A stretch of 64,000 nucleotides of DNA, taken from NCBI GenBank assembly GCA_016928875.1, contig JAFGJY010000089.1, positions 3,625 to 67,624 on the forward strand, written 5' to 3'. Position numbers and translations under genes: made by a program. Shown here in pieces: positions 38,813 through 62,555 of this stretch. Below the pieces are notes generated by a model that worked only from the letters and a program-made list of their open reading frames with translations, did no database searches and was not told the origin of the DNA. The DNA comes from Candidatus Omnitrophota bacterium (GTDB taxonomy: Bacteria; Omnitrophota; Omnitrophia; JAHJGZ01; JAFGJY01). Every line of letters starts with the position of its first letter. The stretch's first letter is position 1.

Positions 38813-39158
38813 TTTAGTTATTCGTAAATCGTAATTCGTAAAAAGTAATGCGTAAATCGTGGTTAGTATCTAGTGCCTCGTGTATCCTAATAATAAGCCA
38901 AATATCGGGACGTGCACTCCTTAAAATATATCTATTTTGAGGATAACGTCAAAACTTTAATCAGGGAAACATTTTTAGGATTTATATTTTGCGCACAGAT
39001 TAGTTGATGCGATAACTCTTTTATTTCAATTACGTTATGAACATACACCACGTTTTACGCCTTACGTTTTACGCATTACGCTTCACGCCTCACGTTTTAC
39101 GCATCGCGCCTCACAATTCACCAACCACAATCCACCAGCCACGATTCACCAACCACCT
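38813..39158. repeat. ORF-less inverted-repeat cassette: CGTAA-word arm (38813..38860), ~185-nt core, TTACG-word arm (39049..39113) plus CACCAACC-word block (39114..39158)
   Basis: The arms are mutually complementary word arrays. The 16-mer gtaattcgtaaaaagt (38831..38846) is identical to 39404..39419. The 22-mer gccttacgttttacgcattacg (39059..39080) is identical to 41863..41884. Confidence 0.75.
38925..38952 (-). promoter_or_regulatory. Candidate sigma70-type promoter inside the ORF-less cassette core
   Basis: The minus strand reads TTGACG (38952..38947) - 16 nt - TATATT (38930..38925), ~125 nt upstream of the epimerase ATG. The context is AT-rich, so a chance match is possible. Confidence 0.2.
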
Positions 39159-39382: not shown

Positions 39383-39425
39383 ATACCTCGTAAGTCGTAA
39401 AATGTAATTCGTAAAAAGTTAATTG

Positions 39426-39785
39426 TTAGCGTTTCAACGAAAATATCAAACCATTTAACATCTTTTTTATGTCTGTTATTTCTTGTTCAATCTTAAAGGC
39501 ATCTTTAACATAACCCTGTTTTTGTGCTATCACAATATGTGTATCTAATTCTGCAAGAGAACCGAGAGCCACATACAAGAACTGCGCAAACTCCTTTTTT
39601 GATTGCCTGCCTGCACCCTCGGCTATATTGGCCGGGATCGATACAGCAGCACGACGCATTTGACTAATCATCCCAAACTTTTCATCATCAGGAAAAGCTT
39701 TCACTAATACATAGATGTCGCTTACAAGTTCTATGCTTCTTTTCCATACATCGAGATCTTTATGACTTTTGTAAGTACTCATCAC
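39426..39785 (-). CDS. Four-helix-bundle protein (23S rRNA intervening-sequence protein family), copy 1
   Basis: ..KDLDVWKRSIELV..FPDDEKFGMISQMRRAAVSIPANIAEGAGRQSKKEF.QFL.VALGSLAELDT.. is the hallmark of this family. Start is GTG 39785 or ATG 39782. Confidence 0.9.
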   Translation of the reverse strand: MMSTYKSHKDLDVWKRSIELVSDIYVLVKAFPDDEKFGMISQMRRAAVSIPANIAEGAGRQSKKEFAQFLYVALGSLAELDTHIVIAQKQGYVKDAFKIEQEITDIKKMLNGLIFSLKR

Positions 39786-39802
39786 GCCTCACGTTTTACG
39801 CC

Positions 39803-41668
39803 TTACGTCTTACGAATTACCTCGATCCACGGCGTCTCAGTAATGCTACCTTTAACATCAGTACACTCGTACTCTACCGTCCCGTCATCCAGCTTCATCA
39901 CGACCTCAAACCCATGTTCATCAAAAAACGTCTTACACGGCATATTCTTCTTCGTCGGCACATACTCCGCCTTTATCTTATCTATGCCCCATGCACCATG
40001 CACTATGCACTTTTTCAGCACTCCCATCGCCGCCGCCTCTATCCCTCGCCCGAGCGCTCGGCAACTTATTATAAAACTATCTATTACCGCTTCTTTATTT
40101 TCAATTTTTACGAGGTATGTCCCAATAATGCCCAAATTCCCGAACTTATCTTCTGCTTCAACTACATGAAGAATACAATTATTATCTTTATAAAAAATCT
40201 CAATATCGCCAATATCGTAGCGTTTTGTAGTTACATTAAACTGATTGGTTTTAATAAATAACTGGTGAACACGCGCAAGCTGGTCTGTGTTGGGTTTATA
40301 GACCCGCACGGATGTACCTAGCGAATGCAAATACTCATTAATGTCAGTAATAGCACTTTTCTCCTCTTCCCGCTTCCGTTGCTGTTTGTATTGGATTGAC
40401 TTGGTCGCATCTTCGGCCGTGATAGTCAAACGTTCAAAGCACGGCAACGAATAAATAAGAGGTGCATATTCAACGGGGTCATCAGATAACTGTATGGTCA
40501 TGACATCAGGCTGCGCTTCCCTCATAAGCTCGCATTCCGCCGGATTGTCATCTATAAAGACAATACTATCGAGCCCAATATTAAGCTGCCCCGCGATCTT
40601 TGCTATATTCACCGCTTTAGGCTCCCAATCGACCATGATCGCGGAAAAATCATCCAATGAAAGGGGCATCTCTGATGCACGCAGTTTAAAAAGCTCTTCA
40701 ACATCCGCCATATTGTTCTTACTGCAAATCGCTAACAGTATCCCTCTCGCCTTAAGTGACTTTATTGCATATTGGAACGCCCTAAAGGCTTCAGCCTGCG
40801 GATTACCCTGTCCTATCAACACACCCTGCGGCCCATCTTCACCTACTATACCGTCCCACAATGTATTGTCCAGATCAACAACTAAACACTTCATTGCGCA
40901 TCCCTTGATCACTTGAATATATCGAGCAATATCAGCAGCCATAAACCGCATGAAATCATCCGACCATTCGATCTTGGATAAATAATAAAAGGTATCGTCA
41001 CATGCACGTTCACTGCCAAACCGATTAACGGCACCCGCAAGATCATAAATAACAACGCGTGGATCCTTCTTAAATGCCGTACTCAACATAGTGTTAAGGT
41101 GAGCGTAAAATGCACTTTCACCAGCCTCACTTTTTGTATCAGCGATCCCATACGCTTTACGTGCCGGCATTGCAAAATTTGCCACCATGATCATCGACTT
41201 TGTGCTCTTAGAAACCATTTGAACCCACTGTTTACATTCATCGATGATACGGGCAGCCTCAGCTTTATGTTCTGCCGATGATAAAGAGCTATACTGATAA
41301 TAAATATCCGGAGACAATTCTCGCAGTGATAATTGGAAGAAAATGACGCTAGGCTTAGCGGCATATAGGCCAGATTGCGGATTAAGCGCCTCCTGTTGGT
41401 ACTGTCCATAGGGGGCTACATATTCAGAGATCGATATCCCTCTGCACAGCGCTGATGCAATAACATTACGTGAAATTACATCAAGGGTAGTATTTCCCAC
41501 AAATGAAACTTTAATATCCGTTTTATCAGCCTCTTTATTCTTTTTATAAATCAAATCAATGTCCTTTGAGGAAAGGTCTTCAGAAGCAACAGACACAAGT
41601 ATCTTCTTCAACGCAGAAATCGACTCACTATTTTTTATCGACTCTCTTAATTGCTTATTATCACTCAT
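39803..41668 (-). CDS. FkbH-like HAD-IIIC phosphatase/acyl-loading protein with C-terminal GNAT-like domain
   Basis: CLVVDLDNTLWDG (HAD DxDxT) and IFIDDNP. 621 aa. The last codons VIRKT-stop are encoded by the TTACG-word arm. Confidence 0.8.
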   Translation of the reverse strand: MSDNKQLRESIKNSESISALKKILVSVASEDLSSKDIDLIYKKNKEADKTDIKVSFVGNTTLDVISRNVIASALCRGISISEYVAPYGQYQQEALNPQSGLYAAKPSVIFFQLSLRELSPDIYYQYSSLSSAEHKAEAARIIDECKQWVQMVSKSTKSMIMVANFAMPARKAYGIADTKSEAGESAFYAHLNTMLSTAFKKDPRVVIYDLAGAVNRFGSERACDDTFYYLSKIEWSDDFMRFMAADIARYIQVIKGCAMKCLVVDLDNTLWDGIVGEDGPQGVLIGQGNPQAEAFRAFQYAIKSLKARGILLAICSKNNMADVEELFKLRASEMPLSLDDFSAIMVDWEPKAVNIAKIAGQLNIGLDSIVFIDDNPAECELMREAQPDVMTIQLSDDPVEYAPLIYSLPCFERLTITAEDATKSIQYKQQRKREEEKSAITDINEYLHSLGTSVRVYKPNTDQLARVHQLFIKTNQFNVTTKRYDIGDIEIFYKDNNCILHVVEAEDKFGNLGIIGTYLVKIENKEAVIDSFIISCRALGRGIEAAAMGVLKKCIVHGAWGIDKIKAEYVPTKKNMPCKTFFDEHGFEVVMKLDDGTVEYECTDVKGSITETPWIEVIRKT

Positions 41669-41862: not shown

Positions 41863-41949
41863 GCCTTACGTTTTACGCATTACGTCTTACTCCCCGCTAT
41901 CCACCAAGCACTAATCACCAACCACCAACCACTAACCACCATCCACCAA
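41863..41949. repeat. Second copy of the composite TTACG-word + CACCAACC-word block
   Basis: gccttacgttttacgcattacgtcttac, then atccaccaagcactaatcaccaaccaccaaccactaaccaccatccaccaat. It has the same order and orientation as 39049..39158. Confidence 0.8.
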
Positions 41950-44022: not shown

Positions 44023-44070
44023 AGAAAATCTCCTTTTTTTATGTTTTAAATGCAACATTTGTTCCATCAT

Positions 44071-45009: not shown

Positions 45010-45018
45010 TTACTCTCC

Positions 45019-45579: not shown

Positions 45580-45595
45580 ATTTCACCACCTATGT

Positions 45596-46837: not shown

Positions 46838-46852
46838 ATAACACTCTAGAGG

Positions 46853-48019: not shown

Positions 48020-48702
48020 TCGCTTTTTCCCACTAATTTCATTATTTGCGCTTGATATTCCTCGATATACCAACGTAGATTTGATTTAAACCAATATAAT
48101 TTTTTACTAAAATATTGTTTTTTTGTTAACATTAACGATTTCTTTTCTAGTCGCTGAAATACAACAATACTCCCAGCTTCTCGATCAGAAATTACTCGCC
48201 ATTCTCCCGGCTTAGATAGTACACATTTAAAGACGGCCGACCACACCTCATTAAAACCATGCTCAGCGCTAGGATAATCATGAAAAGCCATAAATCCACC
48301 GGGAATGACGTATTTGCTCCAATTACGAATATCAGAGATAACACCGTTTTTTCGATGATCACCATCAATCCACAACAATGCGATTGGTCTTTTCCATTCT
48401 ACAGCTACGAGAGAAGACCTTTTTAAAACTCGAGTCACATACATATCAACACCTGCTTTTTTTAAATTAGATCCAACATCAGGGTGCTCATAAATATCTA
48501 TCGTAATAATCGGATTTCCACCTCTTTCTTTTTGCGCGTATCCAAGAGCTATCGTAGATTTACCCGCGCAAGTTCCAATTTCTACTATCTCACCTTTTTC
48601 TGATGTTTTTTTTGCGAGTGAATATAAAAACTCTGGTTGAGGATGAGAACACATTGATTCTGGAATGGAATGAATAAAACTAAATAAACTATCTTTTTCC
48701 AT
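48016..48702 (-). CDS. Class I SAM-dependent methyltransferase (Methyltransf_24/O-MT-like)
   Basis: IVEIGTCAGKSTIALGY (motif I), LLWIDGDH. Confidence 0.7.
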   Translation of the reverse strand: MEKDSLFSFIHSIPESMCSHPQPEFLYSLAKKTSEKGEIVEIGTCAGKSTIALGYAQKERGGNPIITIDIYEHPDVGSNLKKAGVDMYVTRVLKRSSLVAVEWKRPIALLWIDGDHRKNGVISDIRNWSKYVIPGGFMAFHDYPSAEHGFNEVWSAVFKCVLSKPGEWRVISDREAGSIVVFQRLEKKSLMLTKKQYFSKKLYWFKSNLRWYIEEYQAQIMKLVGKSE

Positions 48703-48721
48703 ATTATCTCCTTCAAGTTTG

Positions 48722-49861: not shown

Positions 49862-49865
49862 AACC

Positions 49866-51335: not shown

Positions 51336-52377
51336 TTCTATAAACCTCTATAGTCTTGAGAGCGATTCTTTTCCAGCTATTAATAGCAATTCTGCGAAGA
51401 TTATTCTGCCCAAGATTATCACTAGTATTCTGGTAAAGCTGGAGTAAGGCTTTACACAAAGAGCCAATATCATCATGCTCATAAAGTATGCCTCCATCTT
51501 CATGTAAATAATCTCGGATACAACCTAAATTTGGCGCAATTACCGGTCTTCCATACGACATCGCCAATATAACGCTCCCTGATGTAAAAATACCGTTATA
51601 TGAGCAAACGACCGCATCACTTGCATTCATATAATATTGAATCTCATCATTATCTATATATTTCAAAAAGTAATATATGCTGTTAAGCTTTGATAAACTA
51701 AGAACTTTTTCCATAAATGAATCATTCAACGGTTTCCCCGCAATTACAAGAGCTATATCATCATTCTTGATTAATTCAAACGCTTTAATTAACACATCCA
51801 ACCCTTTATATGGTCGAACTGCTCCAAAAAATAAATAAATAAACTTACTTTTAGGCAATCCTAACATTTCTCTTGATTCATCTTTTGTAACATTATTTTT
51901 ATATGCGCCAATATAATGGCCATGCGGCACAACGACCACCTTGTCCTCAATCTTTCCTTTGAAATATTTGTTTTCAACTATAGTCTTCCCGGTTTTTGAA
52001 TGCACAATAATTGCATGAGACAAAGAAACAAGAACTATATTAATTATATCATTCATAAACGGATTTTTTGTATCATGCTCTCTTAGATTATGAACCGTCC
52101 ATATAATTCTTATGCCAATAATTCTCAAAAGATAAAGTTTAATTGTTGATTGTAATAGCTTAAAACTCTTGAAAAAGATATTATTGACCTTTGACGAAAG
52201 GAGAGGCTTAATCCAGTGAATATGTAGTACATGTGTGCCATTTCTATTTAATAAAAGATGTTTGATTGGTATGTCATGAGAAAAACCAACAACAACCGAT
52301 TCACTACGTAATTCGTTTGCCAACAAAGATTGATATAGATTTGATCCTCTGTAATCTGGTACAAATAAAACTTTCAT
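51328..52377 (-). CDS. Glycosyltransferase family 4
   Basis: The preferred start MKVLFVPDY at 52377 matches other GT4 N-termini (ATG 52410 is also possible). C-terminus ..CSYNGIFTSGSVILAMSYGRPVIAP. Confidence 0.75.
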   Translation of the reverse strand: MKVLFVPDYRGSNLYQSLLANELRSESVVVGFSHDIPIKHLLLNRNGTHVLHIHWIKPLLSSKVNNIFFKSFKLLQSTIKLYLLRIIGIRIIWTVHNLREHDTKNPFMNDIINIVLVSLSHAIIVHSKTGKTIVENKYFKGKIEDKVVVVPHGHYIGAYKNNVTKDESREMLGLPKSKFIYLFFGAVRPYKGLDVLIKAFELIKNDDIALVIAGKPLNDSFMEKVLSLSKLNSIYYFLKYIDNDEIQYYMNASDAVVCSYNGIFTSGSVILAMSYGRPVIAPNLGCIRDYLHEDGGILYEHDDIGSLCKALLQLYQNTSDNLGQNNLRRIAINSWKRIALKTIEVYRND

Positions 52378-52411
52378 ATTTAATATCTTCTTAACCCAAT
52401 CTTGAGACATA

Positions 52412-53779
52412 TTATAGATTACATACAGCAAACCGATATTTACCATTCTTATCTTGATCGATTTTCTCAACAGTCAAAATATCAATCTTAACACCTTGGA
52501 ACACAGCAGCTAACTCGTCAATAAGACGCTGATTGGTTATTGATGAATATGCGTCGCCATGAACAATTTTCACAATCAAGCAATCTATCTTGTCTTGAAT
52601 TATTTGCATCTGCTTTATCCCAACTACCTTCGTCAAAGTTCTTTCAATAAGTGAAATGCCAGCAACTTTAGTTCCATCCTTTTTGATCAAGAAGTCAGCT
52701 ACTCTCCCAACAACCTTCTCAAGCAATGGCAATGTTCGCCCACAAGAACATTTCTTTACTGCCATTACTCCATAATCACCTACTTCATAACGAATAAAAG
52801 GCATCCCGTAATTAATAAGGTCAGTAACAATTATACGCCCCATTTCGCCATGTTGCGCTTTTATGCCATCATCTTTAATTATTTCTACAAAAACGTGATC
52901 AGTATTAACATGCAAACCATCGTAACAACTACATTCTGAGGCGATTAAACTTACTTCTTCACATCCGTAGCGGTTTTGGACTTTGCATTGAAAAGCATCT
53001 TCGATAATGCGTCTTTCATTATCAATGAGCATCATTGATGTTGCAACGATTGATTCCATCACCAAAGAAATTTTATGAAACAAACAATAATCAGCAAATA
53101 AGAATAGTGAATGTGAATGTCCAAACAAGTGCTTAATTGCCTTCGCCTGAAGTGTATTAGCAAAAGCACTCAAAGTTGCGTCATTCATAGTTATGGTATC
53201 TAATACTTCAACTCGTTGAATACACATACTATATAATCTTTTTTTAAGAGTGTCCGGCTTCGTCGGATTCCCCCATAAAGCTCCCCTCATAGCCCCCAAT
53301 CTCCATCCTGCCCACATATCACTACGTATAGCCGCCGCATTTCTCCTTTCTACGCATTCCTTATCAGCCCATACCTCAAGAGAGGTGCCAGTCGAACCTC
53401 CTGTCTTTGATTTAAGCAATACACTTTTACCATATGCGAGAGATATAAGATTTTCGGTTCTATTTCTAATATCGTCTTTTCTAAGGATAGGAATGGATTC
53501 AATTTCTCTTGGTAATTCTAATTTGTCGATATCAATACCTAGTTTATCAAATAACTCCTTGTAATATCGTGTTGTCTCATATGCATGTTTAATTATTGCC
53601 GTGAGCTTTCGAGATATCATTACACTTCGTTTTTCAAGAGGCATCCATTGCGCCTTATTAAGCTCTTTCAAAGATCTTAAACGAACACTGCGATCTTTAA
53701 TATCCCATAAAGGATAAAATAAATGCTTCGACAGCGCCTCACCTATAAACTGTGACATTTTTTCATATACTCTCAGCAT
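52412..53779 (-). CDS. Phenylacetate-CoA ligase-like adenylate-forming enzyme (fourth paralogue)
   Basis: SKTGGSTGTSL motif, ..YGCEE.. and ..RYEVGD..; 455 aa. Confidence 0.75.
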   Translation of the reverse strand: MLRVYEKMSQFIGEALSKHLFYPLWDIKDRSVRLRSLKELNKAQWMPLEKRSVMISRKLTAIIKHAYETTRYYKELFDKLGIDIDKLELPREIESIPILRKDDIRNRTENLISLAYGKSVLLKSKTGGSTGTSLEVWADKECVERRNAAAIRSDMWAGWRLGAMRGALWGNPTKPDTLKKRLYSMCIQRVEVLDTITMNDATLSAFANTLQAKAIKHLFGHSHSLFLFADYCLFHKISLVMESIVATSMMLIDNERRIIEDAFQCKVQNRYGCEEVSLIASECSCYDGLHVNTDHVFVEIIKDDGIKAQHGEMGRIIVTDLINYGMPFIRYEVGDYGVMAVKKCSCGRTLPLLEKVVGRVADFLIKKDGTKVAGISLIERTLTKVVGIKQMQIIQDKIDCLIVKIVHGDAYSSITNQRLIDELAAVFQGVKIDILTVEKIDQDKNGKYRFAVCNL

Positions 53780-53983
53780 CAGGATTACATGCTTTAATTA
53801 GCTTCGTAGGCCACCCTCTAAAATGCAGCCGCCGCTGGATCTTTCGTTAACACACCCTTATAGAAGTCATTCCTCCTGCCTTGGCAAACACCGTCTTATG
53901 TGCGCCGACACATGGCATCTTAATGTTAGACCATAATCGGGGATAATATTGTTTTAATACAATGTTGTACTAGTAATCGTATG

Positions 53984-55102
53984 CTATGCTTCTTTCAAGA
54001 AGCGCTCATAGTAAATTTCGTGTTTTGAAACCATTGCATCTAATAAAAACTCCTTCTTTACATAATTAAAAGCTTTGTCTGTTAAATCTGTCCTTAATTT
54101 TTCATCATCTAATAATGAAATTATCGCATCTGCTATAGAATCGGCATTCCCTCGCTCGGCGAGCAATCCATTCTCTCTATCTTTAATGATTTCCATATTC
54201 CCAGGATTATTAGTCACAATCACAGCACACTTGCATGCCATATACTCAAGCACAGCATTAGACAATCCTTCAGTATCAGACGTATTAACCGCTATATCAA
54301 ATACACACATGACAGGTAAAACATCATCAACTAATCCAAGAAATTGCATTTTATCTCCAAATTTTCCTTCTCTCGCCATTTCTTGCAAACATTCTCTTTG
54401 ATATCCATCACCAACGACAAGAAATACTAAGTCCCTCTTTAGTTCATAAACTCGTTTTGCAGCTTGTATGAATAGGTCTACTCGCTTAACCACTCTATTG
54501 AAATTCGAAACTATACCTACTACAGGAATGCCTTCAGCTATCTTTAAGTTATGTCGAATACGCTGATTATTAATACATATATCCTTTATATTGAGGGCCG
54601 CATCTAAACCATTATGTATTACAGAGATGAAATCAGTCGTTATTTTTTCGTTTTTAATAACACTCTGCTTAACTGCTTCAGAATTAGCTAACACACCATG
54701 AGACAACATATTGGCTAACTTCATCAGAAACTTTGTCTTTGTATTATACCAAAACCCCAAGTCACGTCGTGATGAAATCCGGACAGGAACTCCTGATAAA
54801 TATGCGCATAATATCCCGACGACTGTTGCATCAATAAAATATGTATGAACAACATCTGGTTTGATTCTTTTTAAGTACTGAACAATGCGAACAATACGTC
54901 TTATTGTCTTGAAAGACATCAATTTATCTATCTTAAATAAATTAACCGTGAAATCAAGTTCTCCTTGGTTTTTCCCCGGTTGATCTTTAAGGCAACAAAG
55001 CTCAACCTCGTGCCCTCGTTCAATTAACTTTCTAACCAAAAGAATTAGCTGCCTTTCAGTTCCTCCACAACCTAAAGAATCGATAAAATAAATGATTTTC
55101 AT
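53984..55102 (-). CDS. Glycosyltransferase family 4
   Basis: MKIIYFIDSLGCGGTERQL; C-terminus ..NTSDTEGLSNAVLEYMACKCAVIVT. Confidence 0.85.
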   Translation of the reverse strand: MKIIYFIDSLGCGGTERQLILLVRKLIERGHEVELCCLKDQPGKNQGELDFTVNLFKIDKLMSFKTIRRIVRIVQYLKRIKPDVVHTYFIDATVVGILCAYLSGVPVRISSRRDLGFWYNTKTKFLMKLANMLSHGVLANSEAVKQSVIKNEKITTDFISVIHNGLDAALNIKDICINNQRIRHNLKIAEGIPVVGIVSNFNRVVKRVDLFIQAAKRVYELKRDLVFLVVGDGYQRECLQEMAREGKFGDKMQFLGLVDDVLPVMCVFDIAVNTSDTEGLSNAVLEYMACKCAVIVTNNPGNMEIIKDRENGLLAERGNADSIADAIISLLDDEKLRTDLTDKAFNYVKKEFLLDAMVSKHEIYYERFLKEA

Positions 55103-56640
55103 TGTCCAATACTCTCGTAAATATTGATATCAAGTTTTCTATCGAAATGAAGTTGCTTAAAGTTCTCTTCTAAGAATTTCTTAACCTCAGGTTTAAAATA
55201 CCTCTTATCATCAAGATCATCAAATCTTGATACAAAATAAACTTTTTTATGGGCTAAGACTTTTCTTATTATATTTAAATCCTCAATTCTTTTTGGGTTT
55301 CTGACTGATTCATCAAGTGACTCCATAAAACTCCATAGATAATCAGGTTCTTTACCAAAATAATAACAAAAATGTTCCCATTCTGTTGATACAAATACAG
55401 CATCCCTATCGATCTTATCTTTTATTGATTCATAGAAAGCCTTATAATCCCCCCAAGTACATTTAATTGCTCTATCGATAGCGGGAAGTGCAATAGGAAC
55501 AGTAATTATAAATATGAATACAAGTATAAAAAGACTCAAACCCGCCTTGATGGCCATTGCCTTTTCTTTCATGCTTTTCATCGCTCTATTAATGATAACT
55601 GACGCAAAAACAGCAGGAATAAGCAAATAAAATGAAATCCCATAAAAGAAATATCTCTCTTGTTTGACTCGAAACAAAAATGAATGCAATAGCACTAACG
55701 TTAAGAAAACAATACTGAAATACAAACCGCGACGTTTATACTTTTGGATCATACAAACTATGCCAAAAGGGAGAAAATATATCATAACCCCATAATAATC
55801 GGTTAATATCCATCGATAATAATGAGGAGAGAACGTCATATATTTGTCCCACCCTAATCCATAACGCGCTATTGTGTAGAACTCGATCATGTATTCTTTC
55901 TTCACAAAATAGCAGATCATAAATAATAAAGGAATTCCTACTAAAGTAAGTAAATATTTATACCACACCCCGGAAAACCGCTCCTCTCTGTCATAGGTAA
56001 CAATTACGAAGCGAATAATGGCATAAAAGAATAGAACAAAAGAAAAGTTTGCTGCCAACGGCTGAAGAATGAACGCAACTCCAAAGGCAAGACATGATAA
56101 AAAAAGCATTGTCGGTGATATCTGCATTTTATTTATGATTGGAATTCCCTTGATAATATGTTTGTCTCGATTTTGTTCATAGCCTTCGAAGAAGAACCAA
56201 ACCCCCGTAAAAAAGAATAGGTTAAAAAGAGCATACATCCGGCAACCGCGAGCGAAGTGAATGTTCAATGGGCTAAGTGCCAAGAATAACATAAATATAA
56301 ATGCCACATTAAGCCCAAAAACACTTCTCACCAAAAGAAATCCTATAATTATAAAAGCGATATCGAATATTACCGAAGGGAACCGAGCAGACCATTCATC
56401 CCTTCCAAAAAGTTTAAACGAAGCAGCAACACTATATGTGAATGGCAGAGCTCGCGTATAAAGTCGTTCTGGTGGAATTATGGGTTGACCCGTCTCAATA
56501 ATACCCTTGGCGGCCAACACATGAAAAAACTCATCTTGCCAAAAGCCGAACTTCCCAAGGTCCCACAATCTCAAACAAAGAGCTACACCGATAATCAAAA
56601 TGAACAAAGCAACATAAATAGTTTTATTATGTATTTTCAT
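55099..56640 (-). CDS. Membrane GT-C glycosyltransferase (ArnT/GT39/GT83-like), second copy
   Basis: The start MKIHNKTIYVALFILIIGVALCLRLWDLGKFGFWQDEFFH at 56640 forms an ATGA overlap and follows a GGGAGG RBS. The D-E loop after TM1 is typical of GT-C. The protein is polytopic with a soluble C-terminus. Confidence 0.65.
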   Translation of the reverse strand: MKIHNKTIYVALFILIIGVALCLRLWDLGKFGFWQDEFFHVLAAKGIIETGQPIIPPERLYTRALPFTYSVAASFKLFGRDEWSARFPSVIFDIAFIIIGFLLVRSVFGLNVAFIFMLFLALSPLNIHFARGCRMYALFNLFFFTGVWFFFEGYEQNRDKHIIKGIPIINKMQISPTMLFLSCLAFGVAFILQPLAANFSFVLFFYAIIRFVIVTYDREERFSGVWYKYLLTLVGIPLLFMICYFVKKEYMIEFYTIARYGLGWDKYMTFSPHYYRWILTDYYGVMIYFLPFGIVCMIQKYKRRGLYFSIVFLTLVLLHSFLFRVKQERYFFYGISFYLLIPAVFASVIINRAMKSMKEKAMAIKAGLSLFILVFIFIITVPIALPAIDRAIKCTWGDYKAFYESIKDKIDRDAVFVSTEWEHFCYYFGKEPDYLWSFMESLDESVRNPKRIEDLNIIRKVLAHKKVYFVSRFDDLDDKRYFKPEVKKFLEENFKQLHFDRKLDINIYESIGQ

Positions 56641-57551
56641 ACCTCCCACCGCTTCATTTTTACTATCAATTTGTGGCCTGATAAAAAGAATATCAAATGA
56701 TCGAATTGCGCGAAGAGCCAAAATAACGGATATGTCAGTGAATACGCCATAAATAGTTTCTTGTATTTATTCATGTCATGTGAAGTCACGACGTTGCCTT
56801 TGGATGGTTCTGTGTTCTGGGTTGCACGCTCGGATAAGTTCTGAGTTCCGAGTTCTGAGTTCTGGGTAGCGACATTGGATGAGTTCGGGGTTCGGGGTTC
56901 GGGGTTCTGAGATGTACACTCTGAACTCTGAACTCTGAACTCAGAACCTTTTAACAATCCCATCCCAAAACAAATAATGATGTCTATCAATTCCGAAAAG
57001 AAACGTGAATAGGCCCGGGATGTGGCTACATCAAAGCTATCGAAGAGCTCTGCAAGCTCTTTTTTTGTATACCCGGGGCGTACATGCCCGTGCTTTTCGT
57101 CTGTTAACCCTAGCATATATTGTAAAGGCCGTATGAGTGACCACGATACTTTATGCGGCGCAAGTACTATTAATTCACCTTCCGGCTTCAATATGCGTTT
57201 AATTTCCAGCGCAAAAGCGTGATCGTCCTCTACGTGTTCTAGCATATCAACGATAACGATAACGTCAAAAGCATGATCAGCAAATGGCAGATGAGGCGGA
57301 TTGTCGATATGCACGACATTAGTTTTAACCAATGACTCGATCGAGTTAACCGTTTCCATACTGAGATCCGCACTCGTCCATTGACCACCTTGCTGTCGCA
57401 ATAAATAACTGATAACACCATTATCAGAACCCAGATCAAGACAGGCCTTGTTATCTAGGTTAGGTAGTAAACGATTAATCTGGTGCCATTTTTCTTTCTT
57501 GAGCACTGATTTTGAGAATAATTTTAAATGCCAATTATCCATTGCGTTCAC
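56637..57551 (-). CDS. Class I SAM-dependent methyltransferase (type 11) with an in-frame repeat insertion near the C-terminus
   Basis: CLDLGSDNGVISYLL (motif I), FDVIVIVDMLEHVEDD. The segment SEFRVQSSECTSQNPEPRTPNSSNVATQNSELGTQNLSERATQNTEP is encoded by the repeat at 56807..56948. Confidence 0.8.
   Translation of the reverse strand: MNAMDNWHLKLFSKSVLKKEKWHQINRLLPNLDNKACLDLGSDNGVISYLLRQQGGQWTSADLSMETVNSIESLVKTNVVHIDNPPHLPFADHAFDVIVIVDMLEHVEDDHAFALEIKRILKPEGELIVLAPHKVSWSLIRPLQYMLGLTDEKHGHVRPGYTKKELAELFDSFDVATSRAYSRFFSELIDIIICFGMGLLKGSEFRVQSSECTSQNPEPRTPNSSNVATQNSELGTQNLSERATQNTEPSKGNVVTSHDMNKYKKLFMAYSLTYPLFWLFAQFDHLIFFLSGHKLIVKMKRWEV
56807..56948. repeat. ORF-less GTTCTGAG-word palindromic element inside the methyltransferase CDS
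   Basis: The left arm gttctgagttccgagttctgagttctggg (56838..56866) matches the reverse complement of the right arm ctctgaactctgaactctgaactcagaacc (56919..56948) at about 25/29 positions. The centre holds a gttcggg x3 tandem (56883..56905). Confidence 0.8.
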
Positions 57552-58557
57552 TCGTCCCTACTAATTTACGTAATGCCCCATACCCCAAATACTGATCGGC
57601 CAAAAATGTTATTGCATATTGAAACGGAATCCCGCCGATCTGCTTACGGCACAGGCGGTCGCATTTCTTACAAAGTGAAAGCTCGTTAACGTTCCCTGCT
57701 AAATTACGCCGGAGCGTTGTATACGCCGCGCCGTTCCATATTTCTTTAATAGAACTCTTGCTGACGTTCCCGAGGTTCATACACGCCATAAAGTCCTGAG
57801 GACAAGGCGTTACGGTTCCATCCCAACATATGACCATTGCGTACCATGGGAACGTGCATACATTACCGTTCAGGATCTCGCCGCCTTTATTCGATTCAAC
57901 GGCCCAGTCATATTCCTGCTTAGTAATGATCTCATTTACCCCAAGGTCACGGAATTCCTGCTCAAGCGCGCGCGTCTCAGCCGTGTCAACGTTCATGCTC
58001 TCATCTTTAAAATGAATACGTTCGATAACAATGTACGGGAGTGCCTCCCTCAACTGTTTCTTGCGTTTGAGGAGTTCTTTTATGTTCGCCACCGTTGTCT
58101 CAAAATTCCCGCCGCGACGGACCTTTTCGTATACATCCTTGGTAAAACCGTCAAAAGAAATAGATACTAAATTCGGGGCGGCTTCGATAAGGAGTTCTGA
58201 CTTATCAAGCGAAAGCAACCCGGCATTGGTGTGAAAACGCACTGCAATCCCTCTATTCTTTGCATATATGATCATTTTAAAGAGGTCTTTGTTCGTAAGC
58301 GGTTCCCCGCGATGATGCAAATAGACATCATTCACAAAATCTTTAGCCTCATCAATGATCTTTTTAAAGAGTTCAAAACTCATCTTCCCTTTCTTCTCTG
58401 CGGCCAAATCTTTGTTTGGGCACATCACACATTTGAGGTTACAGATCAGGCTTGACTCGATCCACAGCTTGATGGGCATGGTATCGAGCGTGGTCTTACG
58501 GCGCTTAAAGTTCGCGAGTATTTTGGCGAGGGTGTAGGTCTTATGTATAAAGTTCAT
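57535..58557 (-). CDS. Radical SAM enzyme with SPASM/twitch-like C-terminal Cys cluster
   Basis: SSLICNLKCVMCP (CxxxCxxC). C-terminus CTFPWYAMVICWDGTVTPCPQDF..C...CKKCDRLC. Paralogue of 11690..12781. Confidence 0.8.
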   Translation of the reverse strand: MNFIHKTYTLAKILANFKRRKTTLDTMPIKLWIESSLICNLKCVMCPNKDLAAEKKGKMSFELFKKIIDEAKDFVNDVYLHHRGEPLTNKDLFKMIIYAKNRGIAVRFHTNAGLLSLDKSELLIEAAPNLVSISFDGFTKDVYEKVRRGGNFETTVANIKELLKRKKQLREALPYIVIERIHFKDESMNVDTAETRALEQEFRDLGVNEIITKQEYDWAVESNKGGEILNGNVCTFPWYAMVICWDGTVTPCPQDFMACMNLGNVSKSSIKEIWNGAAYTTLRRNLAGNVNELSLCKKCDRLCRKQIGGIPFQYAITFLADQYLGYGALRKLVGTSERNG

Positions 58558-58580
58558 AGTTCTGGGTTCTGGGTTCTGGG

Positions 58581-58943
58581 TTATTTTAATTTTTGTGAAA
58601 AAGTAAATATCATTCGTGATAATATGTCTAATTCTTCTAATAGAGCCTTTTGTTTATCATCAGTAATATATCCTTGGTTCGCGGAAATAAACACTTGCGT
58701 TTCAAGTTCTGCGATAGAGCCACGTGCTACTGCTAAAAATTGTTTAAATTCCTTCGCATGATTTCTTCTGAATCCCTCAGCAATATTTGATGGGACCGAA
58801 ACTGAAGCCCGTCTCATTTGAGATATCATCCCAAACTTCTCGTCTTCTGGATATTTTTTCGTGATCTCATATATAGCATTGACGATATCCATCCCTTTCT
58901 GCCATATTTTTAAATCTTTATAGTGCTTTATTCCTTCTGTCAT
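58581..58943 (-). CDS. Four-helix-bundle protein (23S rRNA IVS protein family), copy 2
   Basis: ..YKDLKIWQKGMDIV..YPEDEKFGMISQMRRASVSVPSNIAEGFRRNHAKEFKQFLAVARGSIAELET.. . Confidence 0.9.
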   Translation of the reverse strand: MTEGIKHYKDLKIWQKGMDIVNAIYEITKKYPEDEKFGMISQMRRASVSVPSNIAEGFRRNHAKEFKQFLAVARGSIAELETQVFISANQGYITDDKQKALLEELDILSRMIFTFSQKLK

Positions 58944-58966
58944 AGTTAATTATAACTTTCTACTAA

Positions 58967-59100
58967 GTCCTGGGTTCAGCGTTCTGTGTCCTGAGTTAAT
59001 TCAACTTCTTTGCGAATGTTAATATCAAATGCTTTTTTCTTCTCTTATTCTAATATCCTAGCGTTCAACCCAGAACCCAGAACGCTGTACTCTGAACTCA
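58967..59100. repeat. GTTCTGGG-word arms upstream of 4HB copy 2 (an inverted pair around an AT-rich ~65-nt loop)
   Basis: gtcctgggttcagcgttctgtgtcctgagtt (58967..58997) pairs with gttcaacccagaacccagaacgctgtactctgaactca (59063..59100). There is a perfect 10-mer pair at 58977..58986 / 59078..59087. A third arm, gttctgggttctgggttctgggtt, lies at 58559..58582. Confidence 0.8.
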
Positions 59101-60036
59101 TTCAATGATCTCCGCGATGTGATATTCTTTGATATTCCGCGCGTGTGTAAAAATGATCAATTCCCCGAGCAACCCCAGGGAGGAAACCTGTACACCAAGG
59201 ACCATGAGGAGCATTCCCAACAATACCATGGGACGGTCAGCCAATGCCTCGTTCAGAAAAAGTCTCGCGTAGCCTAAATATGCCGTAATGAGCGTCCCCA
59301 TTACAAACACGGTGCTTCCTATCAATCCAAAAAATCTCAAGGGTTTGCGGGTGAATTTGATGATAAAAAAGAGTGAAATGATATCGATCATCCGCCGTAC
59401 ATATACTCCAATGCCATAAAACCTTAGTTTTTTATCTTCTTCGCGTTGCTGTGCCGGCAGCTCGCTGATCTTGTATCCCTGCTGGAACGCAAGGATCGGT
59501 ATAAAACGATGCATGTCCCCCGTCAGATTAAGGCCTTTCGCAACCTCAGCCCGCATGCACCTGAGACCGCAGGAAATATCTTTAAATGAAAAGTTCGTGA
59601 AATTCTTAATGAGCCCATGGAACACCGCGGCTTGTACCCTATTAATGATATTGTCCTGGCGCGGTTCGCGACGCGTTATAACGAGGTCATAACCGTGCTC
59701 AAGTTCATCGAGCATAGTGTTCATGACGTCCGGTACGACCTGAAAGTAGGCTGACAGCGTGAAGATTATATCTCCGCGGGCGTGTTCGAAGCCTACCATA
59801 AGGGCAACCGCTTCAAAGAAGTTTCGTGCGAATTTGATGATACGTATCTCGGGGAATTCCTGGCGTAATCCTTTGAGTGCCTGGAATGCGTCATTATGCA
59901 CGCCATCAACGACGAAAATGAATTCGAACGTCAAACCGCGTGCTTTTAAGGGTTGTGAGTATTCGGTGAAGAGTTTACGCAAATCGTGATAGCGTTCGAT
60001 CACAGGAACCACTACGGAAATCTTTGGATTATTCAT
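59098..60036 (-). CDS. GT2 polyprenol-phosphate glycosyltransferase-like (DPM1/GtrB/ArnC-type, C-terminal TM helices)
   Basis: ISVVVPVIERYHD...FIFVVDGVHND..; two C-terminal TM helices (..FFGLIGSTVFVMGTLITAYL.., ..VLLGMLLMVLGVQVSSLGLLGELII); GAGGAG RBS. Confidence 0.7.
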   Translation of the reverse strand: MNNPKISVVVPVIERYHDLRKLFTEYSQPLKARGLTFEFIFVVDGVHNDAFQALKGLRQEFPEIRIIKFARNFFEAVALMVGFEHARGDIIFTLSAYFQVVPDVMNTMLDELEHGYDLVITRREPRQDNIINRVQAAVFHGLIKNFTNFSFKDISCGLRCMRAEVAKGLNLTGDMHRFIPILAFQQGYKISELPAQQREEDKKLRFYGIGVYVRRMIDIISLFFIIKFTRKPLRFFGLIGSTVFVMGTLITAYLGYARLFLNEALADRPMVLLGMLLMVLGVQVSSLGLLGELIIFTHARNIKEYHIAEIIE

Positions 60037-60082
60037 TTATGTTCTCCTCTTGTAATTATAATTGGTGCGGGTTGTTTTTTAT

Positions 60083-60185
60083 TGTCATCCTGAGACGAGC
60101 GAAGCGAGGCGAAGGATCCAGGATAAGCATTCACGTGGTACTTGTAGCCTAGATCCTTCGCCCCTCCGGGGCTCAGGATGACAGC
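60083..60185. repeat. Hairpin MITE family A, copy 2 (intergenic, abutting the stop of 60187..61146)
   Basis: tgtcatcctgagacgagcgaagcgaggcgaaggatccaggataagc...cctagatccttcgcccctccggggctcaggatgacagc. The minus-strand frame AVILSPGGAKDLGYKYHVNAYPGSFASLRSSQDD is open. Confidence 0.85.
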
Positions 60186-60186
60186 A

Positions 60187-61146
60187 TTATTTAATTATTT
60201 CAGCTGTAACTGTACTTAATTTTTCCGCTTTGTATTTTCCTTGCCGTAAAATGATCACGCTTAATAACGCTAAAAAAATAAAATGCGTCACCAGCATGAG
60301 CATCAGCAATGTCGCTCCGGGAAAGACGATGCCCGGCGTATGCGCAAAGATATAATGTTCTATGGTCGCGATGAGACAGAGCACGCTTAATGCCAGGAAC
60401 GGTAATGTCCAGAACGCGAAGAATAATGCCGGCTTTGTTGAGAAACGAGTTAAAAGCACCATAGTAAATAGATCCGCAAACACCTTGAACGTCCGTGAAA
60501 GCCCGTATTTTGATTTCCCATACACCCTCGCATAATGGTTCACCGGCATCTCCGCGGTACGAGCACCGGTGATCGAAGCCACTGCCGGGAAAAAGCGATG
60601 CATCTCAGCGTATGCCTGCACTTCCCTGATACATTCCCGTTTGTATGCCTTGAGCGAACAACCGTAATCGTGCAAATGAACGCCGGTGAGGATCGATATG
60701 AGCTTATTGGCACACATTGAGGGTAACTTGCGCGTTAAGAATTTATCCTGGCGTTTGTACCGCCACCCGCTCACGACCTCATAGCCTTCGTCCATCTTAT
60801 CAAGCAACTTTTTCATATCAGCCGGATCGTTCTGCAGATCGCCGTCCATGGTAATAATGATATCGCCGCGTGCGTGATCGAAACCCGCGACCATGGCCGG
60901 CGTCTGGCCGTAATTCTTTCTGAAGCGGATAACGCGCAGGTCATTGGTGCCTGACACCAACTGTTTCAATATCTCAGGTGTCTTGTCACTCGAGCCATCA
61001 TCGATCAATATGATCTCATACGAACGCCCAAGCTTTACCGCTTCATCGTGGACACGCTCATAGAGCTTCTTAACGCATTCTTGTTCGTTGTAAATAGGAA
61101 TTACGATCGACAGATCAGGGTTCATGGTGCATAGTTCATGGTTCAT
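60187..61146 (-). CDS. GT2 polyprenol-phosphate glycosyltransferase (ArnC/GtrB-like)
   Basis: LSIVIPIYNEQE..ILIDDGSSDKT..ITMDGDLQNDP plus C-terminal TM helices. ATG 61146 forms ATGA with the 4HB stop. The first 7 codons (MNHELCT) lie in the repeat arm; an alternative start is ATG 61125 (MNPDLSIVIP). Confidence 0.85.
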   Translation of the reverse strand: MNHELCTMNPDLSIVIPIYNEQECVKKLYERVHDEAVKLGRSYEIILIDDGSSDKTPEILKQLVSGTNDLRVIRFRKNYGQTPAMVAGFDHARGDIIITMDGDLQNDPADMKKLLDKMDEGYEVVSGWRYKRQDKFLTRKLPSMCANKLISILTGVHLHDYGCSLKAYKRECIREVQAYAEMHRFFPAVASITGARTAEMPVNHYARVYGKSKYGLSRTFKVFADLFTMVLLTRFSTKPALFFAFWTLPFLALSVLCLIATIEHYIFAHTPGIVFPGATLLMLMLVTHFIFLALLSVIILRQGKYKAEKLSTVTAEIIK

Positions 61147-61508
61147 GGTACGATACTCTTCATTAATGCTGTAATTTTACGGCCTAATTGAGACAGCAAG
61201 CTCAATAATCGTTCTTTAATTTCATTATTTAAAAATCCCAAATTATATGAAAGCATTACTTGCGTTTCTAATTCAGCTAACGACCCTCGCGCGATACTCA
61301 AAAACTGCTTAAACTCTTTCTTGTGTGAACGTCGAAACCCTTCTGCAATATTCGAAGGAATTGAAACCGCAGCTCTTTTCATTTGTATAACAATTCCATA
61401 TTTTTCTTCATCGGGATAATTGCTACAGACCTCGTAGACAAATTTAGCCAAGACCATCCCCTCTTGCCACACGATCAAATCTTGATATGTCTGTATCTTT
61501 TTATTCAT
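61143..61508 (-). CDS. Four-helix-bundle protein (23S rRNA IVS protein family), copy 3
   Basis: MNKKIQTYQDLIVWQEGM..YPDEEKYGIVIQMKRAAVSIPSNIAEGFRRSHKKEFKQFLSIARGSLAELET.. . The start at 61508 was chosen by alignment with copies 1 and 2; the ORF-track GTG at 61535 lies in the repeat arm. Confidence 0.9.
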   Translation of the reverse strand: MNKKIQTYQDLIVWQEGMVLAKFVYEVCSNYPDEEKYGIVIQMKRAAVSIPSNIAEGFRRSHKKEFKQFLSIARGSLAELETQVMLSYNLGFLNNEIKERLLSLLSQLGRKITALMKSIVP

Positions 61509-61552
61509 ATTCTTTATTGCTTTACCATGCACCACGCACTATGCACCATGCA

Positions 61553-62386
61553 CTATACTTTCAGGGAATCCCCATACTCCGCGATGGTCATGAATTCATT
61601 GCCCGACATGATCGCACGCAATTTTGATTCTGTTTTATCAAGGTTTATATAATGTCGGAATGCTGCTAACGCGTTCGTCGTTATGCGCGGCTGTTCCGGA
61701 TCGAATTCCCACGGATGAAAGTACATATTCACAACCTGCTCTGCGGCATTGACCTGTTGCATACATTTTTTTATTACCCATAAAGGCAACATTCTAAAGT
61801 AACCGCCGCCGGCAAAGGGTATCCTCTTACCTAATACTTCTGCGGTTGATATTGGTATCTCCTGCAACTGCCCTTTTTGCGTTTTTATGACATACGGATA
61901 ACGCTCTTTACTCGGCAAGCCATAATGATCATGATGCATCGGGAACAATGATGAGTCGAACTCAATCCCAAGTTCTTTTATAACATCATATGCCCACATG
62001 GTCTTCCGTGATATTGAAAAGCATGGCGCTCGATAGGACCTTATCTTCTTCTGCGCCAAGGTGCCTAATATCTGCAGAGACCTTTCTACATCTTTCTTAT
62101 ATTCTTCTTGAGTTTGTTTGTATACGAGTTCATGCCCATAGCCATGAGAGGCGATCTCATGGCCACGTTCGGCAATGTGTCTTATCACATCAGGACGTTT
62201 TTCTGCCACACACCCAAGCACAAAAAAGGTCGCCTTGGCATTATGATCATCGAGGATACGCAATATTCTCATGAGGCCTACGGTAAGACGTGAGTCGAAG
62301 TTCTTCCACTCGTCCTGACGTATGACAGACTTGAAGTTCTCCACTTGGTAATATTCTTCGACGTCGAAGGTGAGTATGATCTTCAC
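61553..62386 (-). CDS. Polysaccharide deacetylase (NodB-type; resembles the DUF3473/PEP-CTERM-locus subfamily)
   Basis: VKIILTFDVEEYYQVENF.., ..IASHGYGHE.., C-terminal ..YFHPWEFDPEQP. GTG 62386 is preceded by AAGGAG at 6-nt spacing. The ORF-track ATG 62440 lies in a repeat (IRYTIY words). Confidence 0.8.
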   Translation of the reverse strand: MKIILTFDVEEYYQVENFKSVIRQDEWKNFDSRLTVGLMRILRILDDHNAKATFFVLGCVAEKRPDVIRHIAERGHEIASHGYGHELVYKQTQEEYKKDVERSLQILGTLAQKKIRSYRAPCFSISRKTMWAYDVIKELGIEFDSSLFPMHHDHYGLPSKERYPYVIKTQKGQLQEIPISTAEVLGKRIPFAGGGYFRMLPLWVIKKCMQQVNAAEQVVNMYFHPWEFDPEQPRITTNALAAFRHYINLDKTESKLRAIMSGNEFMTIAEYGDSLKV

Positions 62387-62444
62387 TTGGTGCTCCTTGT
62401 ATATCGTATAGCGTATTGCGTCGTGCGTATTGCGTTGCACCCCT

Positions 62445-62555
62445 CGTCATCATTACGAAAGAGTGCAGGGCCCTTGCTTCCGTCGTCATTGCGAAAGAGT
62501 GCAGGGCCCTTACTTCCGTCGTCATTGCGAGTGAACACAGCGCTCTTACTCTTCA
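62445..62555. repeat. 36-bp half-element stutter array (about 3 units) leading into MITE A copy 3
   Basis: Units cgtcatcattacgaaagagtgcagggcccttgcttc (62445..62480), cgtcgtcattgcgaaagagtgcagggcccttacttc (62481..62516), and a degenerate third unit. Confidence 0.8.

Follow-up and report, generated by a model that had tools for sequence, protein, structure and literature searches.

A palindrome of heptamer arrays read in frame within an Omnitrophota methyltransferase gene and its apparent kinship with nearby four-helix-bundle cassettes

We analyzed a stretch of 64,000 nucleotides (nt) from a Candidatus Omnitrophota bacterium (GenBank assembly GCA_016928875.1, contig JAFGJY010000089.1, positions 3,625 to 67,624 of the forward strand), referred to below as the window. 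It carries a long one-directional surface-polysaccharide gene cluster to which a class I S-adenosylmethionine (SAM)-dependent methyltransferase gene belongs. Within this gene, in frame with its coding sequence, lies a palindrome of ~145 bases built of 7-base tandem repeats. Three cassettes (A, B, and C), each with an Avd-like four-helix-bundle gene of the PF05635/TIGR02436 family (S23p, 23S rRNA intervening-sequence protein) enclosed by inverted heptamer arms, sit inside the polysaccharide operon. The coordinates of these features are collected in Table 1.

According to a Pfam scan, the Methyltransf_11/23 core of the methyltransferase occupies residues 23–173, and its conserved C-terminal segment is YSLTYPLFWLF. 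A preliminary description of this DNA, made from the letters alone, had placed the palindrome between the Rossmann-fold core and a hydrophobic C-terminal segment and had it read through in frame, which is what we find. The public annotation starts the protein at the ATG at 57542, giving 301 amino acids, and an exact look-up of the 304-residue GTG-start product in protein records returned no match; an annotated protein of a Candidatus Omnitrophica metagenome-assembled genome (MAG) matches the methyltransferase with 100% identity. The TGA stop of the methyltransferase gene and the ATG of the glycosyltransferase gene that follows it overlap as ATGA, and a GGAGG lies closely upstream, the pattern expected for a live, translationally coupled methyltransferase gene. 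The gene lies at the edge of a block (44001–56000) in which the G+C content is 33–36%, compared with 41–52% elsewhere in the window, a drop that may point to separate acquisition of part of the glycan cluster.

The methyltransferase open reading frame (ORF) runs uninterrupted through the element as ...GSEFRVQSSECTSQNPEPRTPNSSNVATQNSELGTQNLSERATQNTEPSKG..., and the two ends of the element form terminal inverted repeats, GGTTCTGTGTTCTGGGTT and AACTCTGAACTCAGAACC. On the plus strand (56806–56948), the modules follow one another in the order GGTTCTGTGTTCTGG, a spacer, four units of GTTCTGA/GTTCCGA, a second spacer, three units of GTTCGGG with one of GTTCTGA, the heptamer GATGTAC, and four units of ACTCTGA. 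Read on the coding strand, this becomes a single sense arm (GGTTCTGA and then three GTTCAGA units), followed by three complementary arrays that in the mRNA sense consist of three CCCGAAC units, four TCAGAAC/TCGGAAC units, and CCAGAAC ACAGAAC. These complementary units are of the NCAGAAC type, and each complementary array is terminated by T(Y)ATCC with ~10 unique bases. Tandem Repeats Finder (TRF) detected AGTTCTG (4.0 copies), GTTCGGG (3.6 copies), and ACTCTGA (4.3 copies) in the element with 90–100% matches; the GTTCGGG array, counted earlier as a threefold tandem at the center of the palindrome, spans 56883–56907 with 100% matches. The inverted arms, first described as ~29 nt agreeing at 25 of 29 positions, were measured as 30 nt each (56838–56867 and 56918–56947) with 87% complementarity and a 50-nt loop. 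Finally, the element contains an internal duplication of 45 nt (56807–56851 and 56852–56896, 73% identical), which preserves the frame because 45 is divisible by 3.

A homologue search of 5.8 billion proteins returned 1,828 relatives of the methyltransferase, 24 of which were aligned with it. The aligned homologues are 45–48% identical by BLASTP, with the best entry after the identical public one at 45%; those listed are mostly 255–300 amino acids long, and all of them span both ends of the query. Where the Omnitrophota protein has 42–43 extra residues, 24 of 24 homologues have a linker of 2–10 residues, and none of them is a repeat-free orthologue sharing the longer linker. Both flanks of the insert are conserved and in frame, with invariant K251-G252, Y270, Y274-P275, D284, and G292. 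The structural model obtained with AlphaFold2 from the homologue alignment (mean predicted local distance difference test (pLDDT) 84, predicted template modeling score (pTM) 0.81) drops below a pLDDT of 50 solely at residues 206–246, the means of the other ten-residue blocks being mostly 84–98. These data are in agreement with the linker insertion, tolerated by the protein, that had been proposed at the outset. The insert peptide is a hydrophilic spacer of ~43 residues rich in Ser, Thr, Gln, Asn, Glu, and Pro. Three C-terminal helices and the final strand (residues 294–301) are confidently placed within the modeled fold, indicating that the insert must be read through to obtain the protein. 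Judging from this model, full-length translation is likely to be needed for methyltransferase function, and the enzyme most likely works despite a floppy extra loop.

Repeats are able to mislead assemblers and the source is a MAG, which raises the question of an assembly artifact; a decaying pseudogene is a related concern. A separate assembly (Logan, run SRR13394437) is 100% identical to the window over 53637–60542 (6.9 kb), insert included; as this run is possibly the MAG's own, the identity excludes an assembler-specific error and not a read-level error shared by both. None of the arrays is as long as a read, the reading frame extends unbroken to either side of the element, and conserved residues continue to the last strand. 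We regard an artifact or a pseudogene as extremely improbable.

Folded as mRNA, the 176-nt region reaches −51 kcal/mol with a z-score of −4.0, and 0 of 200 shuffled sequences folded equally well, consistent with the RNA stem suggested in the preliminary description. The predicted stem comprises 31 base pairs (bp) with three single mismatches at about −39 kcal/mol and joins the 5′ sense arm to the middle array, its best partner; the other two arrays yield −22 and −17 kcal/mol. The coding strand of the element is open in two of its three frames, and the opposite strand is closed in all three. A sense arm of perfect GTTCTGA units would bring an in-frame TGA at unit 2. The actual units are GTTCAGA, a T-to-A change that avoids the TGA and costs one A·A mismatch per heptad of the stem; we read this variant, from the sequence itself, as a sign that keeping the frame open was selected over the strength of the stem.

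The stem could be the reason for the element: an adaptive RNA hairpin, acting as a cleavage site for RNase III or as a point of translational pausing, would tune the methyltransferase and the downstream genes, with the peptide as a by-product. The predicted stem matches the cassette stems described below in strength, comparable 28-bp stems of intervening sequences (IVSs) are cleaved by RNase III (PMC4990558), and the ability of the sense arm to pair with any of the three complementary arrays would allow alternative structures. However, a cut within the coding sequence would ruin the message, whereas the frame beyond the element remains intact and conserved. The T-to-A change favors the open frame over stem strength, none of the 24 aligned homologues has a structure at this position, and the whole window, which contains no rRNA, gave no Rfam match at gathering thresholds. 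An adaptive RNA role is therefore improbable in our judgment. The predicted stem may well slow ribosomes or attract RNase III, but the stem-weakening substitutions together with the intact downstream frame suggest that such effects are tolerated and not selected.

The arrays could also act as a phase-variation switch, in which gain or loss of units would truncate the methyltransferase, toggle glycan methylation, and weaken the coupling to the downstream glycosyltransferase. Heptanucleotide tracts drive phase variation of pglE in Neisseria. As in such tracts, the 7-nt units of the insert lie within a gene for glycan modification and, 7 not being divisible by 3, would throw translation out of frame on slippage. 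Adding or removing a single unit in any of the three arrays leads to a stop at residue 253 or 261 and the loss of the confidently modeled C-terminal helices and strand. The gene belongs to a surface-polysaccharide cluster, and its stop codon overlaps the start codon of the following gene. The number of heptamers beside an S23p ORF differs between Coxiella strains, being 2 or 3 (PMC4990558). Unlike contingency tracts, which are usually longer and perfect, the arrays here are palindromic, imperfect, and 3–4 units long. In the window and elsewhere, such arrays are mostly found between genes or beside four-helix-bundle genes, making the coding position exceptional, and the two consensus assemblies are identical. 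A switch of this type seems to us about as improbable as the adaptive hairpin.

The element is one of many period-7 arrays in the window. We counted 18 such arrays compared with 0.2 in shuffled sequences, a ~90-fold excess over 64 kb, and periods 5, 6, 8, 9, and 10 remained near background with 0–2 arrays. The three four-helix-bundle proteins are 47–50% identical to one another, and their scores against Avd models of diversity-generating retroelements (DGRs) are weak and below the model cut-offs. All three PF05635 genes are enclosed by inverted heptamer arms of 30–32 nt with 80–88% complementarity, but the arm word differs for each cassette: CGTAARR for A, GTTCTGG for B, and GCATGGT for C. With their arms, cassettes A, B, and C measure 431, 548, and 434 nt, and their stem energies are −25, −43, and −43 kcal/mol. 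Cassette B has an additional inner array at 58966–58997. Apart from the intergenic hairpin of the cassette A word class listed in Table 1, a further ORF-less hairpin spans 58966–59098 with a 69-nt loop. The stem of the insert, at −39 kcal/mol, falls within the range of the stems in the window (−25 to −44 kcal/mol). Searching by tblastn for remnants of a four-helix-bundle ORF, we found nothing significant in the 183-nt loop of the intergenic hairpin (38864–39046) or upstream of cassette B.

Table 1. Positions in the window of the methyltransferase gene, the modules of its in-frame element, and the related cassettes and hairpin
Feature	Position	Strand	Remarks
Class I SAM-dependent methyltransferase ORF	56637..57551	minus	304 amino acids from GTG
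Whole palindromic heptamer-repeat element	56806..56948	minus	Ends are inverted GGTTCTG...CAGAACC; residues ~202–249
Segment extra relative to all 24 homologues, ~42–43 codons	56811..56939	minus	From alignment; nearly coincides with the AlphaFold2 low-confidence stretch
5′ arm, mRNA sense: GGTTCTGA then GTTCAGA x3	56918..56948	minus	Direct codon reading and arms search
Unique spacer GATGTAC (plus strand)	56911..56917	minus	Adjoins array
Complementary array 1: GTTCGGG x3 + GTTCTGA (plus strand)	56883..56910	minus	Pairs weakly with 5′ arm, −22 kcal/mol
Complementary array 2: GTTCTGA/GTTCCGA x4 (plus strand)	56838..56867	minus	Main 3′ arm of the mRNA stem
Complementary array 3: GTTCTGT GTTCTGG + spacer GGGTTGCACGCTCGGATAA	56807..56837	minus	First copy of the 45-nt duplication
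Cassette A	39390..39820	minus	PF05635 gene 39426..39785 within 30-nt inverted CGTAARR arms
Cassette B	58551..59098	minus	PF05635 gene 58581..58943; outer arms 58551–58582 / 59067–59098, 32 nt, 88%, GTTCTGG units
Cassette C	61120..61553	minus	PF05635 gene 61143..61535 within 31-nt inverted ACCATGA/GTGCATG arms
Intergenic ORF-less hairpin, cassette A word class	38823..39087	minus	41-nt arms, 85%, 183-nt loop, −44 kcal/mol

The word of the insert is also that of cassette B, 1.6–2.2 kb away. A two-unit GTTCTGR pattern with up to two mismatches gave 16 matches in the window compared with 0.8 expected, bearing out the common word class noted in the preliminary description; the sites are confined to the insert, the surroundings of the cassette B gene, and one chance-like site at 57424. 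The likeness extends beyond the repeat units. The segment GTTCTGTGTTCTGGGTTGCACGCTCGGATA (56807–56836) is identical at 27 of 30 positions to a stretch within 59046–59083 on the opposite strand, beside cassette B, with a local alignment score of 45 compared with a best score of 22 in 300 shuffles. This match covers 14 of the 17 non-repeat spacer positions and keeps the same register adjoining the array. The non-repeat spacer GGGTTGMACGCTMGGATA of the insert recurs in the window solely beside cassette B, where 0.03 matches are expected. A second module, TGTAC(A)CTCTGAACTC, made up of the short spacer and the array next to it, recurs in cassette B at 59085–59099 in the same orientation. With one module shared in opposite orientation and the other in the same, the arrangement of modules differs between the insert and cassette B; an inversion between inverted arrays would yield such a difference. 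On the evidence of their sequences, the insert and cassette B are related, with either direction of descent compatible with the data.

The preliminary description went further and regarded the element as an ORF-less derivative of the cassette type. Its kinship part is supported, through the word, the arm length, and the 27/30 module, but its derivation part is not, as no ORF remnant is detectable and the ORF-less form is the commoner one elsewhere. Derivation of the insert by deletion of the ORF was considered and set aside, as it cannot be shown when tblastn detects no trace of the ORF.

Alternatively, the element could have arisen wholly in place, neither mobile nor copied, its likeness to cassette B being convergence on a word. 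The seed would be the Lys-Gly-Ser-Glu codons (AAA GGT TCT GAG) with GGTTCTGAG, expanded by slippage into heptamer arrays; strand-switching at the quasi-palindrome so formed would then have made the complementary arrays. In the homologue P0028, LKGSE occurs natively at this position, and seeds occur by chance in coding DNA, as in the DLGSD of the same gene. The 45-nt duplication and the homogeneous GTTCAGA units show growth in situ, heptamer arrays occur in many phyla away from any cassette (3 of 120 listed loci have a four-helix-bundle gene, as described below), and slippage of a polymerase on 7-nt units is among the proposals made for heptamer repeats in bacteria (PMC4679880). However, convergence on a word does not readily account for the 14 of 17 agreeing non-repeat positions in the same register, for the second segment common to the insert and cassette B, or for a word class found at two places in 64 kb apart from the chance-like site, and slippage alone cannot produce inverted arrays. 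A purely local origin thus appears unlikely, although less so than the switch or the adaptive hairpin. The DLGSD motif, which belongs to the SAM-binding site of the methyltransferase, is encoded by GATCTGGGTTCTGA (57424–57437), a chance near-match to two units, and native seeds of this sort could nucleate arrays.

We consider it likely that the insert is an ORF-less member of a palindromic heptamer-repeat family and a tolerated passenger in the manner of a Rickettsia palindromic element (RPE). Elements of this family would likewise form the ~30-bp terminal stems of the ~430–550-nt PF05635 cassettes in this genome. A copy akin to the arm and spacer of cassette B would have landed in the variable linker that joins the Rossmann core to the C-terminal helices, either through ectopic recombination or through some form of transposition or copying from a cassette-B-like element; alternatively, the element may have started by nucleation on the native GGTTCTGAG of the Lys-Gly-Ser-Glu codons. 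Growth in place by 7-nt slippage and the 45-nt duplication would have followed, under selection for the reading frame and a stop-free strand. The insert would persist because it occupies a length-tolerant surface loop in the sole stop-free orientation and with a frame-keeping length. At present, it would be a neutral or slightly costly passenger, presumably translated in the cell as a disordered spacer, and it looks like a bystander and not a working part of the enzyme.

Several observations weigh against the tolerated-passenger reading. There is no clear target-site duplication; AAAGG occurs at each end, at a distance of 150 nt, but in both places it encodes Lys-Gly, one of these pairs being invariant in the homologues, and LKGSE is native in P0028. 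The nearest homologue is 45% identical, leaving no close empty site that would fix the insertion boundaries or the age of the insert. Given the composition of the element, it would be open and in frame by chance in roughly 1 in 6 to 1 in 9 cases. A remnant of the four-helix-bundle ORF is not detectable in the insert by tblastn. In 1.1 Mb of other loci, the shared spacer is matched at four or more mismatches alone, which is the chance level, and the same holds for the loop motif; this argues against a conserved cross-phylum element, and the kinship of the insert is demonstrated within this genome alone. No transposase was found among the window ORFs scanned against Pfam, and no dedicated transposase screen was run. 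Finally, our view of the genome is the 64-kb window, which limits inference of copy number and of a master copy.

The closest homologue (P0002) lies in a syntenic operon of another Omnitrophota genome, GCA_042576765.1, with the order GT2, a deacetylase-DUF3473-GT2 fusion of 603 amino acids, GT2, radical SAM/SPASM, and the methyltransferase (256 amino acids). The proteins of this operon are 45–54% identical to those of the window and hence represent distant relatives. Its 6.8-kb syntenic stretch contains no four-helix-bundle gene, one weak two-unit period-7 match, and no insert. The position of cassette B corresponds to a ~100-nt spacer, and that of cassette C to the inter-domain linker of the 603-residue fusion (window 60187–62440 compared with positions 1011–2822 of the relative's locus). 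The window deacetylase ORF matches fusion residues 1–261 and the window GT2 ORF residues 288–602, and the start codon of the latter falls within the cassette C arm word ACCATGA. The two ORFs may have been split by cassette C in the window, or the fusion may have arisen in the relative. As these positions are empty in the syntenic relative, the cassettes and the insert are lineage-specific additions to a conserved operon. A different hairpin repeat, TGTCGTCCCGGA...TCCGGGAT, occurs both in the window (2590–2760, accompanied by a 21-nt tandem repeat at 2592–2647) and in two intergenic spacers of the GCA_042576765.1 operon (locus positions 2840–2900 and 3890–3950), and may represent a family common to the phylum that resembles repetitive extragenic palindromic (REP) sequences.

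We then surveyed heptamer arrays and four-helix-bundle genes beyond the window. Searching the representative genomes of GTDB for three GTTCTGR units yielded at least 120 loci from Desulfobacterota, Planctomycetota, Chloroflexota, Acidobacteriota, Bacteroidota, Cyanobacteria, Verrucomicrobiota, Nitrospirota, and others. A four-helix-bundle gene lies in the same 8-kb block at 3 of the 120 listed loci and within 600 nt at 2 of them, indicating that heptamer arrays are a broader phenomenon; we rejected GTTCTGR arrays as a general marker of four-helix-bundle cassettes on the same count. In these other genomes, ORF-less heptamer hairpins far outnumber those that bear an ORF.

Starting from the gene instead, a metagenome scan collected 80 loci encoding relatives of the window four-helix-bundle proteins. 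At 43 of the 80, the four-helix-bundle ORF has period-7 arrays no more than 200 nt away, and the density of these arrays is 1.95 per kb near the ORF compared with 0.29 per kb farther off. Period-8 arrays lie within the same distance at 20 loci, and periods 5, 6, and 9 are not enriched. Where arrays flank the ORF on two sides, 25 of 28 pairs are inverted complements, built of many different words. A flanking inverted repeat score of at least 16 was reached at 29 of 64 two-flank loci and in 0 of 1,280 shuffles. Four-helix-bundle genes therefore seem to be coupled broadly to inverted arrays of 7- and 8-nt units, a coupling that seems to be little described. Our literature search, which left most subscription journals outside its reach, found no report of a general link between PF05635 genes and inverted arrays of heptamers or octamers; the sole mention of heptamers beside an S23p ORF came from a paper on the Coxiella IVS (PMC4990558). 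In a Peptococcaceae MAG (locus positions 1980–2600), a four-helix-bundle cassette is bordered by a long CCCAGAA/CCCGGAA array and, at its other end, by a CTGAGTT array, and a stretch of ~45 nt (TTCTGAGTTCCGACCCCAAATTCCTTGCCCATAAGCCCC..TCATC) is duplicated on one side. By eye, this duplicate resembles the 3′ end of the neighboring gene, perhaps a candidate sigma factor gene, and it hints at cassette insertion that spares the host gene.

A wider reading of these surveys would make PF05635 genes within inverted arrays of 7- and 8-nt units a widespread and essentially undescribed class of IVS-like mobile cassettes. Such cassettes would colonize any transcribed DNA, be it rRNA, inter-cistron spacers, or domain linkers; in the last of these, a stop codon and a start codon can come from the arm word. 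They would shed ORF-less hairpins able to settle in frame inside proteins. Their arrays would be a footprint of mobility or processing, for example of RNA ends set by RNase III, or of a polymerase or a reverse transcriptase slipping in concert with an Avd-like protein, and not plain microsatellites. With all of these parts taken together, we hold this picture to be doubtful.

In-frame heptamer palindromes are rare yet recurrent. In all the DNA examined, we found 54 complementary heptamer-array pairs less than 250 nt apart, 3 of which lie in a long open frame: that in the Omnitrophota methyltransferase, one in a Nitrospirae CbiG-CbiH fusion, and one in a Nitrospiraceae hybrid histidine kinase. 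The CbiG-CbiH element (locus positions 860–980) has the GTTCTGG word, and the TP_methylase domain there is split into two stretches; the kinase has its palindrome (locus positions 4431–4504) in a loop of the receiver domain.

In-gene repeat inserts are likely to be present in three further ORFs of the window as well. ORF 3023–4189 (DUF1016_N and SNase) has ~41 apparent extra residues (GVKGQGARVKGQASERK...) within its SNase domain (window 3190–3320), encoded by a CAAGGGN heptamer array and a CGTAAAR-type hairpin; this stretch is likely a second in-frame repeat insert, the supporting PDB alignment being weak (E = 0.3). In the FkbH-like ORF 39803–41668, four GTGCATR units at 39982–40011 encode CIVHGAWGI in the C-terminal domain, either as an insertion or as an overwriting of native sequence, and GTGCATR is the arm word of cassette C, 21 kb distant. 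ORF 62932–63948, a GT2-like protein with no Pfam match, has a low-complexity stretch near its C terminus (...VILSPEGAKDPGYLNQ...DDSKRRNDDNGATKYDIRNTIY) that includes a GTATATC/GTATTTC heptamer array (63043–63072), and a 36-nt tandem repeat of 2.9 copies lies nearby (62397–62550). Between the Big_5 gene and the FkbH-like gene, the spacer at 41710–41949 holds a 21-nt tandem repeat of 5.2 copies (TCCCGACTTGCTTCACGTCAT) as well as seven CCACCAA units and other heptamer arrays.

Bacterial heptamer repeats were described decades ago but, to our knowledge, have no accepted origin or role, and we know of no function for the abundant S23p/four-helix-bundle family outside DGRs. This locus joins the two. 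One operon shows three outcomes: a cassette between cistrons, a cassette at the position of a fusion linker, and an ORF-less hairpin in frame within a protein. For the methyltransferase itself, the insert is of little consequence, and for annotation, its low-complexity peptide should not be taken for a functional domain. Our results extend protein-coding palindromes, so far found mainly in Rickettsia, to free-living uncultured phyla, and make the spread of the cassettes and their processing by RNase III directly testable.

Among known systems, the closest in behavior are the RPEs, palindromes of ~150 bp that lie in frame in many Rickettsia genes at positions compatible with the protein fold (Ogata et al. 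2000, reviewed in PMC10969869). The insert shares with them the ~150-bp palindrome in frame (in RPEs, within unrelated enzyme genes), the translated extra peptide, the fold-compatible site, and the lack of a transposase of its own. Unlike RPEs, it consists of tandem 7-nt units with a cassette-specific word and is kin to stems that enclose PF05635 genes. Its host is an Omnitrophota bacterium and not an intracellular alphaproteobacterium, and the in-gene copies here amount to one proven and two or three more likely in the window. Given its heptamer build and its host, it is very unlikely that the insert belongs to the RPE sequence families; the likeness is one of behavior.

The cassettes, in turn, resemble the IVSs of Coxiella and Leptospira 23S rRNA. 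The Coxiella IVS measures 428 nt, includes an S23p ORF, is closed by a terminal stem of 28 bp that RNase III cleaves, and carries heptameric repeats of strain-variable copy number at the ORF boundary (PMC4990558). The cassettes agree with this IVS type in size (~430 nt compared with 428 nt), in their stem of ~28–32 bp, in the S23p ORF in the loop, and in the boundary heptamers, but they lie between protein-coding cistrons and, in one case, apparently inside one. The insert also has such a stem (30-nt arms, −39 kcal/mol), yet its 50-nt loop holds no PF05635 ORF, whereas cassettes A, B, and C each have one. It therefore falls outside the rRNA IVS class on two defining features, the ORF and the position in helix 25 or 45 of 23S rRNA. 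Moreover, excision without re-ligation, as in an rRNA IVS, would kill the message when the element lies in a coding sequence.

Cyanobacteria are known for short tandemly repeated repetitive (STRR) sequences, and in the tRNA-Leu intron of Nostoc, degenerate heptamers pair as a hairpin within a functional RNA. An excess of heptamer repeats has been described in cyanobacteria, Beggiatoaceae, and Bacteroidetes (TAACTGA), with slippage and regulatory roles proposed (PMC4679880). The window arrays are like STRR-type repeats in their tandem 7-nt units, their excess at period 7 only, their mostly intergenic location, and their patchy spread among phyla. They differ in forming complementary pairs that yield long stems, in words that vary between elements, in their link to PF05635, and in that one of them lies in frame in a protein. 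With miniature inverted-repeat transposable elements, REP sequences, and REPINs (REP doublets forming hairpins), the insert shares the small non-autonomous palindrome, the terminal inverted repeats, and dispersed copies, some of them in genes. Unlike these, it has no convincing target duplication, and its arms are arrays whose sequence is not conserved between copies; the Pfam-scanned ORFs include no parent insertion sequence or REP-associated tyrosine transposase, although no screen dedicated to transposases was made. What is new here is an RPE-like in-frame palindrome made of heptamer arrays and kin to IVS-like S23p cassettes, and more novel than the insert itself is the coupling of these cassettes to short-period arrays, together with their seats in operons and domain linkers.

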